From a virus (Duplodnaviria; Heunggongvirae; Uroviricota; Caudoviricetes): a DNA stretch of 52,665 bases. This document shows, one piece after another, positions 4,438-52,641 of the stretch (positions are counted from its first letter, which is position 1; each line of letters opens with the position of its first letter). The stretch lies in the IMG/VR virus record IMGVR_UViG_3300036856_000037. One strand, written 5' to 3'. The translations under genes and the position numbers were made by a program. The notes under the pieces are model-generated. The model was not told the DNA's origin. It worked only from the letters and a program-made list of their open reading frames with translations, and did not search any database.

Positions 4438-4720
4438 GCCCTGGCGGGTGGCCGTCGACCAGCACGGCTTCCAGCGCGAGACCATGAAGCACGACGGCAG
4501 CACTCCCATCGAGCTCACGTACTACTCCGGCTTCCAAGACGTCTTTGCCGACATTGAGGACGTTCAGGTGGGGGATGCGGCCACCGTCATGTACCTGGAG
4601 TCGGACAGAATCGCTGATGGGGTGGTCAGCGCAATCAAGCCCGACGACGAGAGTCGCCCCTGGCTGGGCGGCCTTATCTACATCACCACTGACTTAAGGA
4701 CGGCACGCGACGATGGATGA
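4430..4720 (+). CDS. hypothetical protein
   Basis: GGAGG RBS, overlap-coupled. Confidence 0.6.
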   Translation: MGKPWRVAVDQHGFQRETMKHDGSTPIELTYYSGFQDVFADIEDVQVGDAATVMYLESDRIADGVVSAIKPDDESRPWLGGLIYITTDLRTARDDG

Positions 4721-5159
4721 GATTGCCAGCTTCCGACATGACCACGCCTACCTGAGCAACTTCTTCCAGGTGCCGATAGTGGACCACGACATCATCTATC
4801 CGTCGTCGGAGCACATGTACCAGGCGCTCAAGACCACCGACGTGGACACCCGGCGCAAGATCGCCGCCGCTGAGACAGCATCAGCGGCCAAGGCGCTGGG
4901 GCAGAAGGTCGCACTTCGGCCGCACTGGGACCGCCTCAAGTACATGCTGATGGAGGACGTCCTGCGGATGAAGTTTGACCAGCACCCCACACTGGCGGTG
5001 AAGCTGGCCGCGACCGGCACAGACTACCTGGTGGAGGGAAATACCTGGCATGACCAAATCTGGGGGGATTGCCTGTGCCCCCAGCACGGTGGGACCCGAG
5101 GCCGTAACGCGCTGGGCATCATCTTGATGCGCATCCGGCTGGACCTGCAGGAGAGGTGA
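4713..5159 (+). CDS. NADAR family (YbiA-like) ADP-ribosylglycohydrolase
   Basis: LSNFF, SSEHMYQALK, M..VLRMKF.QH, LVEGNTWHDQIWG, RNALG motifs. Confidence 0.9.
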   Translation: MDEIASFRHDHAYLSNFFQVPIVDHDIIYPSSEHMYQALKTTDVDTRRKIAAAETASAAKALGQKVALRPHWDRLKYMLMEDVLRMKFDQHPTLAVKLAATGTDYLVEGNTWHDQIWGDCLCPQHGGTRGRNALGIILMRIRLDLQER

Positions 5160-5556: not shown

Positions 5557-5901
5557 TTATTCCTCAATCCAGTAACCGCCGCGCCGTACCTCAGTCTTGA
5601 GGTTACGTCGGCCGAGTGCCATCTCCCTCTGGTTCAACTCAGCGATGGCTAACTGCTCCTCTCCCAGCTGTCGGCGCAGTCAAACCTTGAAGGTGTTGCT
5701 CTCTGCCATCCGGCGAAACGCCGTCACCTTGTTCTGCAACTGACTGCGCTGCTCTTGGCTCTCGCCTACTGCACCCGAGGCTCGGTGCACGATACGCACG
5801 GCAGTGTCCCGCTTATTACGGTTCTGGCCGCCTTTGCCACTGCCCCGCTTGGTCTGCACATTGCAGTCCTTGAGCGTGACCGACAGAACTTTCTCTTTCA
5901 T
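5557..5901 (-). CDS. GGQ peptide-chain release factor-like (ArfB/RF-1 domain) protein with an in-frame TGA at codon 74
   Basis: GSGKGGQNRNKRDTAVRIVH motif; frame stays open for 40 codons past TGA (5680-5682) to TAA at 5557. Confidence 0.85.
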
Positions 5902-20298: not shown

Positions 20299-20372
20299 GG
20301 GGTTATAGCTCAGCTTGGTAGAGCGCTTCCTCCGCAAGGAAGAGGTCCAGGGTTCGATTCCCTGTAGCTCCA
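20299..20372 (+). tRNA. tRNA-Ala(CGC), C33
   Basis: G3:U70; CTTCC-TCCGCAA-GGAAG. Confidence 0.9.
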
Positions 20373-20383
20373 CTGCCGCCACG

Positions 20384-20410
20384 ATGCGTCGTGCGGTCTT
20401 TGTGCTTTGA
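20384..20410 (+). CDS. candidate leader peptide MRRAVFVL (Ala/Phe/Val codons)
   Basis: ATG CGT CGT GCG GTC TTT GTG CTT TGA ahead of Ala, Met, Phe and Val tRNAs; no SD. Confidence 0.5.
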   Translation: MRRAVFVL

Positions 20411-20423
20411 CAACTACAAAAAT

Positions 20424-20504
20424 GGGCTTGGGACAGTTTCGACCTCGTGACGAAATCCGCACGCGGAACCATGAGGGACGCCGGGGCAGCACCGGCCAGG
20501 TCCA
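20424..20504 (+). ncRNA. tmRNA tRNA-like domain without an mRNA-like domain (mini-tmRNA)
   Basis: GGGCTTG/CAGGTCC-A acceptor with G3:U70; GTTTCGAC D-loop mimic; CTCGTG/CATGAG helix; GGAC-GCCGG-loop-CCGGC T arm. Confidence 0.75.
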
Positions 20505-20578
20505 CGATCAGAGGGTCGGGCTTTCCTGCCCGATTGTTGATGCCTTCCCCGGCTCATTTCCTGACCCTCTGATCTCAA

Positions 20579-20651
20579 GGGCTTATAGCTCAGATGGTAG
20601 AGCGCCGCCTCGGCAGGGCGGAGGTCCGGGGTTCAATTCCCCGTTGGTCCA
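20579..20651 (+). tRNA. tRNA-Ala(GGC), C33
   Basis: G3:U70; CCGCC-TCGGCAG-GGCGG. Confidence 0.9.
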
Positions 20652-20733
20652 CAAGCTGGGTTGGGCAGTTCCTAGGCGTGTTCAAAGCTGTCACGGTGCG
20701 CAGGTTTCCAATGCCGTTTCCTGCGCATCACCT

Positions 20734-20806
20734 GGGGCCGTAGCTCAGTTGGTAGAGCGCCGCACTTGCACTGCGGAGGTCGCGAGTTCAACTCTCGCCT
20801 GCTCCA
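20734..20806 (+). tRNA. tRNA-Ala(TGC)
   Basis: G3:U70; CCGCA-CTTGCAC-TGCGG. Confidence 0.92.
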
Positions 20807-20945
20807 CGTTGCGCCGTAGCGCCGACAGACCCATCAGGGAGGGGCACCACCTGACACGTCTGCAAACGAGCCGTGCAGAGCGGTGACCAGGGTTGATCGC
20901 CTGGTCGACGGCGCTTCATACTTGGGGAATAGCGGTTCCCCACAA

Positions 20946-24001: not shown

Positions 24002-24520
24002 ATGAGCGATGCGACCTTTGGCAGCACCTTCAACGGCGGCCAGGGCATTCACGAATTGACCGGTGAGCCCTATCTGGCGGTCACCATTCACTCCTCCATC
24101 ATCGGTTGGCGCCACCGCAAAGGCGTGATGCAGAAAATCCTGTGGAAAAAGCACGTTGACGCCCGCGGGCGCACGTCCTACCGCGCGCGCAAGTGGCCCA
24201 ACATGCCCTTCACCCTGCTGACCCGGGCGCGGTATGCCCTGCGTCCCCAGCTGTGTGCCGTGGGCTTTCACCACCGCGCCGACATCACCGAGGTGGACGG
24301 CAGTGTGTGGCGCGCGGGCTGCCTGTCGTGCGACACGCTGGTCAGGCCACATAAGAAGCTTCCGGCCAACCCCAGCAGGGTGGCAGAACTACAGGCGCTC
24401 AATGCCAAGGCGGACAAGATGAGCGCCGCCATCGACGCCTACCTGGCGGGGGAGGGTCCGTGTCCGCACTGCGCCTACCCCGATGGGAAACATGAGCCCG
24501 GCTGCTGGGAGGCGGAGTAG
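24002..24520 (+). CDS. hypothetical protein
   Basis: 172 aa ORF; CLSC, CPHC. Confidence 0.65.
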   Translation: MSDATFGSTFNGGQGIHELTGEPYLAVTIHSSIIGWRHRKGVMQKILWKKHVDARGRTSYRARKWPNMPFTLLTRARYALRPQLCAVGFHHRADITEVDGSVWRAGCLSCDTLVRPHKKLPANPSRVAELQALNAKADKMSAAIDAYLAGEGPCPHCAYPDGKHEPGCWEAE

Positions 24521-25031
24521 CCCGCGTCTGCGCAGCACGCGCGACATACGTCAGCAACGTCGCCCTCGGCGTCACAGTTGCTGGAATCACCTCATCGTTG
24601 CGCCGTTGTGGCCGAAGCACGGTGTCAACCTCGGCACCATGTTGCGGACGTGTGATGCCGCGGGCGCGTGCTTGGCCGTCCCGAAACTCCCCTGGGTCAA
24701 GGAAGCATTGGCCAAGGGAAATACATTGCGCACTCCGTCGTGTGTGCACTGGATCTATGCCGATGTAGGCGACTGGCTGAAGCGTCAGCGGGAGGGAGGC
24801 TCTCTGGTGGTGGGGGTGGAATTGACGGAGGAGTCAGTGCGACTGGCCGACCTGCCGATGGCACGTCAGCGGACAGTCATCGTGCTGGGGAATGAGCGCA
24901 CCGGCATCCCCCAAGAAGGCCTGGAGCACCTGGACGTAGCGGTGGAGATTCCGATGATTGGCAGCGGTGACAGCCTTAATGTCGTCATCGCCGGGTCTCT
25001 GGTCCTCTACAAGCTAGCGGGCCTGGTCTAG
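24483..25031 (+). CDS. SpoU/TrmH-family (SPOUT) RNA 2'-O-methyltransferase
   Basis: NLGTMLRTCDA, VLGNERTGI, VEIPMIGSGDSLNV motifs; start uncertain. Confidence 0.9.
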   Translation: MGNMSPAAGRRSSPRLRSTRDIRQQRRPRRHSCWNHLIVAPLWPKHGVNLGTMLRTCDAAGACLAVPKLPWVKEALAKGNTLRTPSCVHWIYADVGDWLKRQREGGSLVVGVELTEESVRLADLPMARQRTVIVLGNERTGIPQEGLEHLDVAVEIPMIGSGDSLNVVIAGSLVLYKLAGLV

Positions 25032-26834: not shown

Positions 26835-26906
26835 GCATTCGTAGCCAAGTGGTATGGCGTCACCTTGCCAAGGTGGAGATCGCGGGTTCGACCCCCGCCG
26901 GATGCT
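26835..26906 (+). tRNA. tRNA-Gly(GCC)
   Basis: TCACC-TTGCCAA-GGTGG. Confidence 0.92.
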
Positions 26907-26942
26907 CAAGTCGGCCCGGAGACTTAAAACTCCCGGGAGCAT

Positions 26943-27017
26943 GGTCCTATGGAGCAGTTTGGAGTGCTCGCCACCCTGTCACGGTGGAGGTCACGGGTTC
27001 AAGTCCCGTTAGGATCG
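26943..27017 (+). tRNA. tRNA-Asp(GTC)
   Basis: CCACC-CTGTCAC-GGTGG; G73. Confidence 0.92.
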
Positions 27018-27018
27018 C

Positions 27019-27069
27019 ATGTTGATTCAGGGCATACGACGAATTAGGTCGCGGCGACAAAGCCGCTGA
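27019..27069 (+). CDS. leader peptide MLIQGIRRIRSRRQSR of the Ile/Arg/Gln tRNA cluster
   Basis: 11 of 15 non-start codons are Ile, Arg or Gln. Confidence 0.65.
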   Translation: MLIQGIRRIRSRRQSR

Positions 27070-27082
27070 CCTGCGTTTTCAT

Positions 27083-27156
27083 GCCCGTCTAGCTCATTTG
27101 GTTAGAGCGTCGAACTGATAATTCGAAGGCACCAGGTTCAAATCCTGGGTCGGGCA
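27083..27156 (+). tRNA. tRNA-Ile(GAT)
   Basis: TCGAA-CTGATAA-TTCGA. Confidence 0.92.
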
Positions 27157-27167
27157 CGCATGACCAA

Positions 27168-27241
27168 GCCTCTGTAGCTCAGCGGAGAAGAGCGTCCGAC
27201 TACGGATCGGAAGGCCGCGGGTTCGAATCCTGCTAGGGGCA
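27168..27241 (+). tRNA. tRNA-Arg(ACG)
   Basis: TCCGA-CTACGGA-TCGGA. Confidence 0.92.
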
Positions 27242-27284
27242 CGTGACTGGTAAGCGAATAGCGAGCGCGCACGACTACTTGCGC

Positions 27285-27357
27285 GCTCCTGGGGCTCACT
27301 GGTACGGGCGACGTTCTTATAAAACGGAGATAGCGGGTTCAATCCCCGCCAGGAGTA
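27285..27357 (+). tRNA. tRNA-Ile(TAT)
   Basis: ACGTT-CTTATAA-AACGG; A73. Confidence 0.85.
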
Positions 27358-27362
27358 CAGAG

Positions 27363-27503
27363 ATGAAGAAGACGATGCTGGTGCACCGCCATTGCGGTGC
27401 TCGCGTCATGGGTGGGAGCTACGGCACCTATTGCCCACGATGCCGTAAGTGGCTGGTCGGCCCCGCGGTCGACCAGGTTCGAAGGCGACGGTCTAGGACA
27501 TGA
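27363..27503 (+). CDS. small Zn-ribbon protein, in frame with an upstream GTG at 27243
   Basis: HRHCG...YCPRC. Confidence 0.55.
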   Translation: MKKTMLVHRHCGARVMGGSYGTYCPRCRKWLVGPAVDQVRRRRSRT

Positions 27504-27529
27504 GCGACAACCTGATGTCGCTATGCCTG

Positions 27530-27603
27530 GCCGTCGTAGCTGAAAAGGAACAGCGCCAGACTTCTAATCTGGGAAGATGCGGGTTCGAGTCCTGTCGGCG
27601 GCA
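27530..27603 (+). tRNA. tRNA-Arg(TCT)
   Basis: CCAGA-CTTCTAA-TCTGG. Confidence 0.9.
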
Positions 27604-27607
27604 CTGA

Positions 27608-27680
27608 TGAGGTGTGGGGTAAACGGCAGCCCGCCGGATTTTGGTTCCGGACAATGAAGGTTCGAGTCCTTCCGCCTCAG
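27608..27680 (+). tRNA. tRNA-Gln(TTG)
   Basis: CCGGA-TTTTGGT-TCCGG; U1:A72, G73. Confidence 0.9.
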
Positions 27681-27737
27681 CGAGGTGGCGGTCAATGCTG
27701 TGCGCGGACGCAATGTCCAGTCCGGCCGTCGCCCCAT

Positions 27738-27807
27738 GCCTTCGCCGGCGGACCCGGCGTCGAGCTTCCGAAGCTCGGTGGCGGCAGTTCAACTCTGCCC
27801 GGGGGCA
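27738..27807 (+). tRNA. tRNA-Arg(CCG), short D arm
   Basis: CGAGC-TTCCGAA-GCTCG. Confidence 0.78.
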
Positions 27808-27835
27808 CGGACTGTATCGCTGCGATACGCAATGT

Positions 27836-27907
27836 GCCGCCGTGGCTGAACGGAAAAGCACCCGCTTCCTAAGCGGACTTACGTGGGTTCGAATCCCTCC
27901 GGTGGCG
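27836..27907 (+). tRNA. tRNA-Arg(CCT)
   Basis: CCCGC-TTCCTAA-GCGGA. Confidence 0.88.
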
Positions 27908-27912
27908 CTGTC

Positions 27913-27955: not shown

Positions 27956-29203
27956 ATGGGGCCGCCGGAGAAAGGTAGTTGGTGGGTGACCGCACCGGAC
28001 TTGCAAGAACAGCTGGAGTACCTAATCCGTACCGGCTCGCCGTACGACTTCGCGCCGGATATCGGGTCCAACATCCTGGACCAGGTCGACGCCTTCCTGG
28101 CGCGCTACGTCGCCTATCCAGATGAGGGTGCGCGGCGGGCACACACGCTGTGGATTGCGCACTGCTGGTTCATGGACGTGTGGCACACGACGCCACGGTT
28201 GCTCTTTGTGTCACCGGAGCCCGGCAGTGGCAAGACGCGCGCACTGACCGTCACTGAGCAACTGGTCCCCCACCCTGACTTCGTCGGTGACCTGACGCCA
28301 GCGGCGCTGTACCACGCGGTGGATGAGACGATGAAAATGGACGGCGCGCGACCCACCGTCCTCTACGACGAGCTGGACACGGTGTTCGGCCCAGAGGCGG
28401 CGGGACGCAACGCGCAGATGCGGCGCCTTATCGACATCGGCCACGCTAAGAATGGCACCGTCAGTCGTTACATCGGCGCAGGCAAGGGCAAGCGCCACAT
28501 CGTCAAGTTTCCGGTGTATGCCGCCATGGCGCTCGCCGGCAAGATGCACGTTGAGGAAGTACCCGCCACCATCAGGTCGCGCAGTGTGGTGGTGCGCATG
28601 CAACGACGCGCGCCGGGTGAGGAGATTGAGCGTTGGCAACGACGCACCGCCCCGGCGGACGCCGCGCCGTTGCGGGACCTCCTGCAATTCTGGGCCGAGT
28701 TTGTCCATGAGCACGCGCACGAGTTTTCCCCAGAACTACCGGACGAGATTGGTGACCGGGACGCCGACGTCTGGGAGCCGCTACTGGCGGTGGCGGACCT
28801 GGCGGGTGGTCACTGGCCCAGGACGGCCCGTGTAGCTGCTGTAGCTGCTGTAGCTGCTGCTGGTGTTAACACCACACCCAGCGCAGGCGTCCAGCTTCTT
28901 TGGGACATCAAAGCCGTTTTCGATGAGCTCGCCGTGGACGTGATCTTTACGGCCAAGCTGCTCATGATGCTGCAGACCCCAGAAGAATCGCCATGGCGTC
29001 GACTTGACGCTATGAAAATGGCCCGCATCTTGCACAGCTACAGGATTGAGACCAATCGAAACCAGCGCATTGGAGAGGTTGTCCGTAGGGGCTACCGCAG
29101 GGAGTACTTCACGGACGCATGGCTGCGTTACCCACCACCCGCGCCAGCTACACCAGCTACACCAGCTACACCAGCTACAGATTTGGATGAGTACTTTGAT
29201 TGA
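27956..29203 (+). CDS. DUF3631-family P-loop primase/helicase-associated replication protein
   Basis: LWIAH, SPEPGSGKT (Walker A), VLYDELD (Walker B), DRDADVWEPLLAVADLAGGHWP, RGYRR.F..AW.RY. Confidence 0.85.
   Translation: MGPPEKGSWWVTAPDLQEQLEYLIRTGSPYDFAPDIGSNILDQVDAFLARYVAYPDEGARRAHTLWIAHCWFMDVWHTTPRLLFVSPEPGSGKTRALTVTEQLVPHPDFVGDLTPAALYHAVDETMKMDGARPTVLYDELDTVFGPEAAGRNAQMRRLIDIGHAKNGTVSRYIGAGKGKRHIVKFPVYAAMALAGKMHVEEVPATIRSRSVVVRMQRRAPGEEIERWQRRTAPADAAPLRDLLQFWAEFVHEHAHEFSPELPDEIGDRDADVWEPLLAVADLAGGHWPRTARVAAVAAVAAAGVNTTPSAGVQLLWDIKAVFDELAVDVIFTAKLLMMLQTPEESPWRRLDAMKMARILHSYRIETNRNQRIGEVVRRGYRREYFTDAWLRYPPPAPATPATPATPATDLDEYFD
28831..28857 (+). repeat. 3 x 9-bp tandem repeat TGTAGCTGC
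   Basis: direct reading. Confidence 0.9.
29144..29179 (+). repeat. 4 x 9-bp tandem repeat CCAGCTACA (near reverse complement of the 28831 array)
   Basis: direct reading; 8/9 match to the reverse complement. Confidence 0.9.
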
Positions 29204-50815: not shown

Positions 50816-51316
50816 TTAGTCAATCGTGTCGTTGGACGGGTTGGAGAAGTTGTCCAGCGGAGTCGCCGCGGACGGCGTGGGGTAGCTGTGCTGGCTCTCT
50901 CCCGGCTGGGCACCGGGGTAGCCCTGGGGCCATGGGCGCAGGCGTGAGGCCAGTTCTTGATAGAGCGTGAACCGGTTACCCGGGGAGCCGATGGCGCCTT
51001 GGTTGGTCGGACACCCGTCAAGGAACCAGTACCACAGCAGCAGCCACACCTTGCGCAGTTCGGCCACATTCCCATAGGGGTCGATGTGACGGCCTACCGC
51101 CTGCTGTCCCGTCCCGGTGACACCGTCATAGGACGCGGAGCTATTGGGCGTGTTGCCACTACCCCAGTTGGTTTCAAAAGGCGTCTTGACGTCGTTGGTC
51201 CCGAACAGGATGCGCGCCAGAATGGGGAGCGACTGGTAGTCCAGCCATGCTCCGGTGCCGGGGTCTTGTCCCGCCAGGTGCGCCGCAACAATCTGGTCAG
51301 CGATGGGTCCAGTCAT
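50816..51316 (-). CDS. hypothetical protein between lysin A and lysin B
   Basis: ATGA coupling. Confidence 0.7.
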   Translation of the reverse strand: MTGPIADQIVAAHLAGQDPGTGAWLDYQSLPILARILFGTNDVKTPFETNWGSGNTPNSSASYDGVTGTGQQAVGRHIDPYGNVAELRKVWLLLWYWFLDGCPTNQGAIGSPGNRFTLYQELASRLRPWPQGYPGAQPGESQHSYPTPSAATPLDNFSNPSNDTID

Positions 51317-52641
51317 TTCTTCTCCTTCTTGGGTGCCCGCAGGCTGACCGGGGACACCGGGATGGCCAACACTTGGCCGGGATAGATCAAATCAGGGTCG
51401 GTGACCTGCGGGTTCGCCGCCAGCAATGCTCCCTCACTGATGCCGAACTGGTTGGCGATGCTGGTGAGGGAGTCACCCGACTGCACCGTATAGGTCTGAC
51501 CCGGCGCGGGACCAGGCGCGGGCGCAGGCGCCGGGGGAGGTGGGGTCACGTCGGCCGGGACGAATTGGCCGAAGTCCGGTGTGTGCGCTTCGTTGATGTC
51601 ACATTCCACCCCATCGACGAACATGTAACCCGCATTGTTGCGTTGCATGATGTTGACTGCCGAGGTGACGTTGCCCCCACTCCACGCTTCGGTCTGCCAG
51701 AGGTAGCGGCAGCCCGTCGCGGCCTGCGCGCGCGTACAGATGTAGTAGCTCCCGTAAATCCCGACGTTCTGGATGCCGCCCAGGACGCTGGCCGCGCCCT
51801 GTAGGTAGTCCTCAATGGGCGCGTCCTCATCGGGTGATTCATCAAAGTCACAGGAGAAGTACACGACGGGCGCGTAGCCGTCTGGAATCGTCCCCGGCGG
51901 CAGCGCCGGGAGCAGGGTGTTGTCGATATAGTCCAGCGCCGCCTGGGCATCACTAACCCCCGCGCTGAACCCGCCGAGCATGAAGTCGGTGGTCGTCTCC
52001 CAGTTGAAGACCACTTGGAGGCCCGAGGAGACGAGGTCGACGAACTCCAGCGCCAGTAGTTGCTTACCCGGTAGCCCCTCACCGCCATCCGTCAGGTAGC
52101 GGCAGACGAAGCTGACGCCGGAAGCCACCAGGCCAGCGCCCGAGCACCGGCCCCCGGCATAGTCGAGTCCTAGTGGATAGCTCATGGGCTGCCTAAAGGT
52201 CGTGTCTTCGGTGATACCGCCGTCATCGTAAACCCACCAGTCGTTCCAGAAGTCGGACGCGATGCCGGTGATTTCCCCTTCTTCTGTGCAGACCCCGTAG
52301 TCGCCGTTGGACTCCATGTCGATGCCGTCGATCTGACACGCCATGTGACTGTCGGGGCCGCCACCGCCGTGCATGATCATCACTTTGATGGGGTAGCTGC
52401 CGTTGACCAGGTCATCCTGGGTGGTCTGCTTGAAGTACTGTGCAACATCGCTGTCGTAGAACGTCTCGGTGCTAAACAGCCGGGTCCAGCTCATCCCCTG
52501 CGGTCCGTTGATGGCGGCGCCGATCATGATGCCGCACAGGCCCGAGCAGTCGGCGCCGACGCCGAAGTTGAAAGGGTCGAACACGCCCGCGTAGTCGTAC
52601 TCGTCGCCGGGGCCTTCATCAATGTCGCGGGGCTGCACCAT
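51313..52641 (-). CDS. lysA: Lysin A: cysteine-peptidase-like domain + DUF1906 (GH25-like) muramidase + LysM
   Basis: ADCSG...SHMAC; GLDYAGG, FVCRYL, VYFSCDFD, GIYG.Y, WQTEAWS; YTVQSGDSLTSIANQFG...LIYPGQVL. Confidence 0.88.
   Translation of the reverse strand: MVQPRDIDEGPGDEYDYAGVFDPFNFGVGADCSGLCGIMIGAAINGPQGMSWTRLFSTETFYDSDVAQYFKQTTQDDLVNGSYPIKVMIMHGGGGPDSHMACQIDGIDMESNGDYGVCTEEGEITGIASDFWNDWWVYDDGGITEDTTFRQPMSYPLGLDYAGGRCSGAGLVASGVSFVCRYLTDGGEGLPGKQLLALEFVDLVSSGLQVVFNWETTTDFMLGGFSAGVSDAQAALDYIDNTLLPALPPGTIPDGYAPVVYFSCDFDESPDEDAPIEDYLQGAASVLGGIQNVGIYGSYYICTRAQAATGCRYLWQTEAWSGGNVTSAVNIMQRNNAGYMFVDGVECDINEAHTPDFGQFVPADVTPPPPAPAPAPGPAPGQTYTVQSGDSLTSIANQFGISEGALLAANPQVTDPDLIYPGQVLAIPVSPVSLRAPKKEKK

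Follow-up and report, generated by a model that had tools for sequence, protein, structure and literature searches.

The closest described relative of the RNA analysed here comes from a mycobacteriophage and is entered by Hudson, Lau and Williams (2014, PMC4131195) as "Mycobacterium phage DS6A (TLD only)", a tmRNA reduced to its tRNA-like domain (TLD). The passages of that paper concerned with inhibition state that a molecule like that of DS6A strongly inhibits tmRNA, perhaps by titrating SmpB, and that inhibition by the TLD-like RNA needed no charging with alanine, and the corresponding passage of Nawrocki, Petrov and Williams (2025, PMC11915505) describes the DS6A form as an inhibitor of the endogenous tmRNA in E. 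coli. Where the two papers treat the matter they cite Mao et al. (2009) as the original source of the inhibition, and what they relate there of function concerns the DS6A RNA alone, in E. coli alone. In the database presented in PMC11915505, 9 entries are classed as "standard, no CDS" and phage tmRNAs number 79 in all; the single phage case named is DS6A, whose entry in the tmRNA Website is tmID 11587 (Phage__Mycobacterium.9).

TLDs without an mRNA-like region are also kept in organelles, namely in the jakobid mitochondrial tmRNA (RF02544) and in plastid forms of ~65 nt, where SmpB is the presumed partner; for the jakobid CDS-less tmRNA the relevant passage of PMC11915505 cites Jacob et al. 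(2004). Unlike the RNA described below, these forms are organellar and result from independent reduction, and the jakobid form is two-piece or permuted in the database tally (PMC11915505). Rfam shows no match between these forms and our element: RF02544 gave none at E≤10 at the locus or at E≤0.5 over the whole DNA analysed, and the same holds for the Y RNA-like tRNA mimics (YrlA).

That DNA, referred to as the window, is a 52.6-kb stretch of phage-like sequence from an uncultivated mycobacteriophage-like virus. As judged from its sequence, position 20424-20504 on its plus strand is the gene of an 81-nt member of the TLD-only tmRNA family that includes the DS6A RNA, and we refer to members of this family as mini-TLDs. 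The original prediction of a tmRNA tRNA-like domain lacking the mRNA domain was borne out by the covariance-model analysis described below, which identifies the element as a homologue of the DS6A RNA. The TLD-only type of tmRNA is already known from DS6A and the window adds a further copy; what this copy adds is a variant elbow, which a minority of cellular tmRNAs also have, and a contrast with relatives of the phage that carry a full tmRNA.

The covariance model used for detection (R1) was built from 20 gap-free 78-nt members of the family, leaving out the window sequence. It matches the window element with 53.3 bits (E 1.5e-12, 52.6-kb window searched), the next matches in the window being three tRNA-Ala genes with 24–28 bits, and it scores 57.3 bits on DS6A at 28478-28557 of JN698994. 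Existing tools make little of the locus. ARAGORN gave no call at 20424-20504, the Rfam models for tRNA, tmRNA (RF00023) and mt-tmRNA had no match at E≤10 within 20380-20580, RF00023 had none at E≤0.5 across the whole window, and the sole Rfam match at the locus was a weak one to the 3' half of tmRNA_permuted (15.7 bits, E 0.18). The covariance-model alignment to tmRNA that had been proposed as a check is positive with the mini-TLD model and negative with RF00023. The gathering threshold of RF00023 is 47 bits; canonical mini-TLDs reach 57–70 bits, DS6A reaches 43 bits, and the window copy gives no match. The tmRNA model finds canonical mini-TLDs but not the window copy because the elbow of the latter belongs to a variant class. 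The RF00023 TLD features present in the window copy are G1:C72, G2:C71, G3:U70, A73, the stem-less D-loop ending in UUCGAC, and GGAC, whereas the canonical T-loop UUCRANY and GG D-loop are replaced by GGCAGCA and AG. The parts of the gene are collected in Table 1.

Table 1. Parts of the mini-TLD gene in the window, with the basis for each assignment
Feature	Position	Strand	Basis
Whole gene, TLD-only (CDS-less) tmRNA, from G1 to discriminator A73	20424..20504	+	R1 match over model positions 1-78 of 78
Acceptor stem, 5' strand GGGCUUG, G3 = 20426	20424..20430	+	7/7 pairs with 20497-20503
Stem-less D-loop equivalent GGACAGUUUCGAC, 13 nt, ending in UUUCGAC, with AG where most relatives have GG	20431..20443	+	sequence, R1
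P2-like helix, 5' strand CUCGUG	20444..20449	+	pairs with 20470-20475 (fold, R1)
20-nt P2 cap: internal loop ACGAAA, hairpin UCCG-CACG-CGGA (20456-20467), AC	20450..20469	+	fold
P2-like helix, 3' strand CAUGAG	20470..20475	+	fold, R1, covariation
GGAC linker 5' of the T stem, a tmRNA TLD hallmark	20476..20479	+	sequence, R1
T arm: stem GCCGG/CCGGC, 7-nt loop GGCAGCA (20485-20491), variant elbow	20480..20496	+	sequence, fold
Acceptor stem, 3' strand CAGGUCC, U70 = 20501, followed by discriminator A20504	20497..20504	+	sequence, fold, covariation

The pair G20426:U20501 of the acceptor stem is thus the G3:U70 pair, and no CCA is encoded. The P2-like helix comprises 6 bp, or 7 bp with the optional pair C20443-G20476, and the short cap upon it stands in place of the entire pseudoknot and tag body of a tmRNA. 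With just 20 nt between the P2 strands, the window copy contains no resume codon, tag ORF or pseudoknots; ARAGORN reports no tag peptide at the site, and the frames through the cap show no conservation among the window, pSt2308 and GiJojo copies. The fold includes no D arm, anticodon arm or anticodon, and neither ARAGORN nor Rfam calls a tRNA here. The acceptor with G3:U70 (GGGCTTG/CAGGTCC-A), the D-loop mimic, the GGAC and the P2-like helix had all been named in the original prediction and were found as described, as were the joining of the two halves by about 20 nt with neither pseudoknots nor tag ORF and the position among the Ala tRNAs, the gene being flanked by tRNA-Ala(CGC) at 20299-20373 and tRNA-Ala(GGC) at 20579-20652. 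The T-loop GGCAGCA, which had been called atypical, is indeed there, but instead of being a defect it is half of an AG/GGCRGYA elbow that also occurs in full-length tmRNAs.

RNAfold returns the TLD structure with a minimum free energy of -31.2 kcal/mol and a z-score of -0.74, which is ordinary for the composition, so support for the mini-TLD comes from homology and covariation and not from folding energy. A scan for promoters and terminators around the gene yielded nothing informative. Immediately downstream, at 20506-20574 (+), lies a very stable fold with a basal stem of 12–15 bp and two small hairpins (-36.1 kcal/mol, z -5.6), which begins 2 nt past the mini-TLD and stops 5 nt before tRNA-Ala(GGC). 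The tRNA array, 2.4 kb long, contains no other inverted repeat of this kind. This downstream structure was rejected as a feature of the family, as it is not conserved in six relatives.

The window copy shares with DS6A the architecture, the length (81 and 80 nt, respectively), G3:U70, A73 and the lack of a tag ORF, and both elements are unannotated in their records. The two differ in that DS6A has a canonical GG D-loop and a UUCGAUU T-loop where the window has AG and GGCAGCA, and in that DS6A is a 60-kb temperate phage without a tRNA array, whereas the window contains 37 tRNA genes (ARAGORN). The acceptor with G3:U70 and A73, the stem-less D-loop ending in UUUCGAC, the P2a helix, the GGAC and the T arm are in common with standard tmRNA (RF00023), from which the window copy differs in that pseudoknots, a resume codon and a tag ORF with its stop codon are all missing. 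The GGAC also occurs in the full-length tmRNAs of Gordonia and of mycobacteriophage Alice, and the 3' acceptor strand of the Alice tmRNA, CAGGUCC-A, is identical to that of the window; the two RNAs are located in different tRNA arrays. With tRNA-Ala the element has in common G3:U70, A73, the 7-bp acceptor stem and the 5-bp T stem, and it stands in line with three tRNA-Ala genes; it differs from them in having no D stem, anticodon arm or anticodon.

A megablast search of the region against phage genomes gave no match, and the window as a whole is without a near match among sequenced phages. Short-word blastn led to the first homologues, in the Streptomyces phages pSt2308 and GiJojo, and further ones then turned up in LuckySocke, BRock, Alone3 and Riptide; apart from GiJojo, where it is taken for the beginning of a hypothetical protein, the element has no annotation in these phages. 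The family was then collected by three pattern scans of IMG/VR followed by a strict filter (7/7 acceptor pairs and 5/5 T-stem pairs), resulting in at least 132 unique copies of 71–82 nt in IMG/VR contigs and Streptomyces phages. Among the matches listed, nearly all pattern matches in viral contigs are perfect mini-TLDs, compared with ~10 of 120 in bacterial genome contigs, where the rest are mostly chance matches or 3' parts of ordinary tmRNAs; the bacterial contigs that do contain mini-TLDs are labelled Streptomyces, Cellulosimicrobium, Mycobacterium, Prochlorococcus, Christensenella and others. From these rates we conclude that the mini-TLD is essentially a phage gene. The "tmRNA" calls made by ARAGORN in two of the collected loci (L078 and L152) were judged false, since they combine the mini-TLD, at which they end, with an upstream half chosen arbitrarily.

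Covariation was assessed on 101 sequences aligned with the model, using shuffled sequences and slid pairing partners as controls; model-based alignments were used because a MAFFT alignment of 118 copies mis-registers the 5' ends. Across the 101 sequences, 97.1% of cells are paired (65.2% in the shuffles), double changes occur in 674 cells (194 in the shuffles), and the covariation score is 0.771 compared to 0.154 for shuffled and at most 0.118 for slid partners, with the caveat that the alignment is fitted to the model and that the acceptor and T stems were part of the filter, the P2 helix and inner hairpin being unfiltered. All 6 pairs of the P2 helix covary, with 93.7% of cells paired, and the inner hairpin and T stem covary as well. 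The inner hairpin takes forms such as CCA-CAAG-UGG and CCC-GAAA-GGG in relatives, and the cap core GAAA-NCCGCACGCGG is common to the window, DS6A and the Streptomyces phages. In the acceptor stem, pairs 4–7 covary and G1:C72, G2:C71 and G3:U70 are invariant (101/101). Among the matches listed, the discriminator is A in 131 of 132 unique copies and CCA is encoded in 40 of 132. The mini-TLD is a real RNA gene under selective constraint.

The gene is independent of tRNA arrays, since 158 of 209 copies among the matches listed are in loci without any tRNA gene. Clustering of the ORFs within 3 kb of the 132 unique copies listed revealed no family-wide protein partner and synteny only at the level of lineages. 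In one lineage (14–18 unique copies; L062, L116, L035 and others) the mini-TLD is situated between the genes for a prohead protease (Peptidase_S78) and an HK97-type major capsid protein, on the coding strand and inside a late structural operon, and in another lineage it is found among replication genes. Neither SmpB nor an RF-1 domain (GGQ) protein nor a full tmRNA is encoded in five complete or nearly complete mini-TLD genomes, those of pSt2308, GiJojo and DS6A and two from IMG/VR, so that the mini-TLD must use factors of the host. The link to the GGQ factor encoded at position 5557 of the window, which the original prediction had entertained, does not hold as a feature of the family, as none of these five genomes (0/5) encodes an RF-1 domain protein.

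Some individual loci deserve separate mention. In GiJojo, the hypothetical-protein CDS annotated as gp44 (L002 1511-1753) opens 2 nt upstream of the mini-TLD and takes in the whole RNA, and the true start of the ORF is probably just past the RNA. Three loci (L005, on the minus strand from 9118, L025 and L030) contain two tandem mini-TLD 5' halves 154 nt apart and, ~560 nt downstream of the second, a matching segment with the T-loop and 3' acceptor strand; this copy is split or interrupted, an insertion or an intron being a possible cause. Further tRNA-like sequences that are unannotated occur in pSt2308 (L001 1815-1886 and 2140-2223) and GiJojo (L002 ~1757-1836 and 2231-2314), one of them with an overly long D region and a loop resembling that of a GCA anticodon, and another with a weak match to tRNA-Sec (34 bits, below threshold).

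The unusual elbow of the window copy recurs elsewhere in the family. A scan for the T-loop found at least 50 further viral loci, and at least 17 unique mini-TLDs have the T-loop GGCRGYA instead of UUCRANY. The D-loop dinucleotide equivalent to G18-G19 of tRNA is AG in 16 of 17 variant copies and GG in 104 of 115 canonical ones among the matches listed. When referred to the tertiary pairs of tRNA, the variant elbow keeps G19:C56 and changes G18/U55 to A18/G55. The coupling of D-loop and T-loop has a Fisher p of 1.8e-18 on sequence counts for the matches listed; phylogenetically independent support is scant, at 2 supported pairs (p 0.5). A tree built from 59 columns, poorly resolved, shows 9 changes of the elbow and does not reject monophyly of the variant (p-AU 0.40). 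The contig IMGVR_UViG_3300017527_000281 (L126) contains two mini-TLDs, at 5-81 and 1317-1392, which lie 1.3 kb apart and have the same acceptor stems, one with the variant elbow (AG, GGCAGUA) and the other with the canonical one (GG, UUCGAUU).

The variant 3'-end pattern is found in 3 of 401 Actinomycetota genomes, in every case in a full-length tmRNA (RF00023 76–132 bits, 368–371 nt). These three tmRNAs (L368, L369, L370) have the T-loop GGCAGUA and a D-loop of the form ..CAG-(U/A)UUCGAC and belong to a small-genome clade of Actinomycetota; in the order of one of the three genomes (G336), 11 of 51 genomes have an identical tmRNA 3' end, and this 3' end is identical to window 20476-20504 at 27 of 29 positions. 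The likeness to the window copy includes the elbow and the T stem GCCGG/CCGGC, whereas the length is standard for tmRNA and there is no R1 match and no central hairpin. Because the same elbow occurs in cellular full-length tmRNAs, we consider the AG/GGCAGCA elbow a natural alternative tmRNA elbow and not a product of decay. Variant-elbow tmRNAs were found in none of 301 Mycobacteriales and none of 91 Acidimicrobiia genomes, and the tmRNAs of Gordonia and phage Alice have the canonical elbow. Since the elbow is absent from Mycobacteriales tmRNAs although the phage proteins are mycobacteriophage-like, either the host of the window phage is not of Mycobacteriales type or the mini-TLD is an imperfect match to the host tmRNA.

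By its sequence relationships the window phage is a distant relative of the cluster C mycobacteriophages: its RF-1 domain protein is 79–83% identical to cluster C proteins, and a tail-region protein gives a weak match. The gene of the RF-1 domain protein (5557-5901, minus strand; PF00472, 60 bits) has 114 codons; at 5680-5682, in the exact place of a Trp codon in the 118-aa homologue from phage Colt, it carries an in-frame TGA, so that the product would be 73 aa long unless the TGA is read through. The 40 codons past the TGA are still conserved, with 71% identity to the Colt homologue overall, and the TGA can be put down to a recent nonsense mutation, an error of sequencing or UGA read-through; no UGA-reading tRNA was found in the window. 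The RF-1 protein is also encoded by cluster C phages with a full tmRNA and without a mini-TLD. In Alice (JF704092.1), which has no mini-TLD, a full 435-nt tmRNA follows tRNA-Arg(CCU); Colt, Tonenili and Phrappuccino likewise contain no mini-TLD. The window array at 26835-27908 is roughly collinear with Alice 95021-96709 and ends with the tRNA-Arg(CCU), which is directly followed by an ORF, leaving the slot of the Alice tmRNA empty, and no full tmRNA is detectable by ARAGORN or Rfam within the 52.6-kb window. Other genes observed in the window encode a SpoU-type RNA 2'-O-methyltransferase inside the tRNA region (24483-25031, +), a NADAR domain protein (4713-5159, +) and a LysM/Rv2525c-like lysin (51313-52641, -).

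The most likely role of the mini-TLD is, we infer, interference with host trans-translation, in agreement with the reports on DS6A. The RNA would be transcribed with the surrounding tRNA array and mature like a tRNA, through RNase P cleavage, 3' trimming and CCA addition, after which host AlaRS would charge it and host SmpB would bind it, the host protein being the presumed partner because mini-TLD phages encode no SmpB of their own. Its sequence appears to have every part required for processing by RNase P, for recognition by AlaRS and for binding to EF-Tu, and it retains the D-loop/P2 region to which SmpB binds in tmRNA. With no template in the RNA, trans-translation could not be completed, and the mini-TLD and the tmRNA of the host would be competitors for SmpB, EF-Tu and stalled ribosomes, so that host trans-translation may tag and degrade fewer proteins, and cause less mRNA decay, during infection. 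Competition, which is also what has been reported for DS6A, is the best supported reading because the RNA has the recognition parts and no template. We think it somewhat probable that the gene encodes a TLD-only RNA which is charged and bound by SmpB in the host and competes with the host tmRNA, and that its elbow is natural and not damaged. Charging seems to matter, given the unbroken conservation of G3:U70 and A73, whereas an RNA that only titrates SmpB could do without it; the conserved alanine identity set thus counts against that form of the mechanism. The ordinary folding energy, the lack of a recognisable promoter or terminator beside the gene, the absence of the variant elbow from Mycobacteriales tmRNAs and the scant independent support for the D-loop/T-loop coupling also weigh against the main reading. 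The SmpB sponge and a rescue that adds only Ala without a tag, both offered in the original prediction, are also the two top-ranked mechanisms in our analysis.

In a rescue of the latter kind, the alanylated mini-TLD together with host SmpB and EF-Tu would accept the stalled chain and add one Ala, and a GGQ hydrolase, which could be host ArfB or Pth or the RF-1 protein of the phage, would release it, so that ribosomes are recycled and phage proteins remain unmarked. The conserved alanine identity set and the intact 12-bp acceptor/T helix for EF-Tu fit this scheme, as do the RF-1 domain protein encoded in the window and the missing full tmRNA that cluster C relatives carry after tRNA-Arg(CCU); CDS-less tmRNAs accompanied by SmpB are believed to be of help to jakobid mitochondria (PMC11915505). 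The absence of the RF-1 protein from all five of the mini-TLD genomes listed above, its presence in cluster C phages free of mini-TLDs, which unties it from the RNA, and the in-frame TGA at a conserved Trp codon of the window gene speak against it, and the passages on DS6A in PMC4131195 and PMC11915505 describe an inhibitor and not a substitute. We regard this rescue as unlikely, though it is the chief rival of the competition reading. A more elaborate version, which we find doubtful, is that a private tag-free module has replaced the cluster C tmRNA, combining the variant mini-TLD and host SmpB with release by an RF-1 protein made through UGA read-through, in which case an elbow tuned to the host would be a determinant of host range; such tuning fits the retention of one copy of each elbow class in L126. 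The RNA might also be a decoy against host defence or RNA turnover, for example against systems with SmpB-like sensors, nucleases that cleave tRNA or tmRNA, or RNase R. The CoCoNuT type IV restriction systems contain SmpB-like OB folds predicted to bind tmRNA (PMC11090510), and an anti-CRISPR from a staphylococcal phage employs RNase R-binding fragments of t(m)RNA (PMC11662646). Neither the window nor the related loci are linked to a particular defence system, however, no protein neighbour is conserved family-wide, and a decoy leaves the strict AlaRS identity set unexplained, which makes this reading distinctly improbable.

Readings that deny the element a function fare worse. A decayed duplicate of tRNA-Ala or a captured fragment of host tmRNA could account for the position among three tRNA-Ala genes with the same acceptor type, for a T-loop without the T54/Psi55/A58 consensus and for the unremarkable folding z-score. 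Against a tRNA origin, the mini-TLD model scores 53 bits on the element and 24–28 bits on the tRNA-Ala genes, and there is no D or anticodon arm; the UUUCGAC, the GGAC and the central hairpin of the family are present, none of the four helices is broken, and the variant elbow is conserved as a class of its own. A non-functional relic is therefore very unlikely in our judgement. Our confidence is lowest, to the point of dismissal, in the view that the element is no RNA gene, being either a piece of the ORF at 20407-20886 (+) or an attP-type core derived from the 3' end of host tmRNA. This ORF does span the element, and in the GiJojo record the homologue forms the beginning of gp44, but the ORF also runs through two tRNA-Ala genes and must be spurious, and changes within the family are compensatory in stems and not codon-like. 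As to attP, many temperate mycobacteriophages have matches of 26–35 nt that cover the T arm and 3' acceptor strand only, which we take to be attP cores for integration into host tmRNA and not mini-TLDs. The window element comprises both halves of the TLD and not just the 3' end, and the element of DS6A is ~10 kb from the integrase.

In the literature consulted, TLD-only tmRNAs have so far been a curiosity. The present comparison shows the gene of the mini-TLD to be widespread in phages, strongly conserved and for the most part without annotation; the RNA would rely on host SmpB. There is an annotation gap here, as the family goes undetected by ARAGORN and its variant class by Rfam, and in at least one phage record the element is called the start of a protein. 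Mini-TLDs have kept the alanine identity set, and their two elbow classes mirror two classes of cellular tmRNA; taken together with the spread of the family, these properties suggest that phages regularly target host trans-translation.
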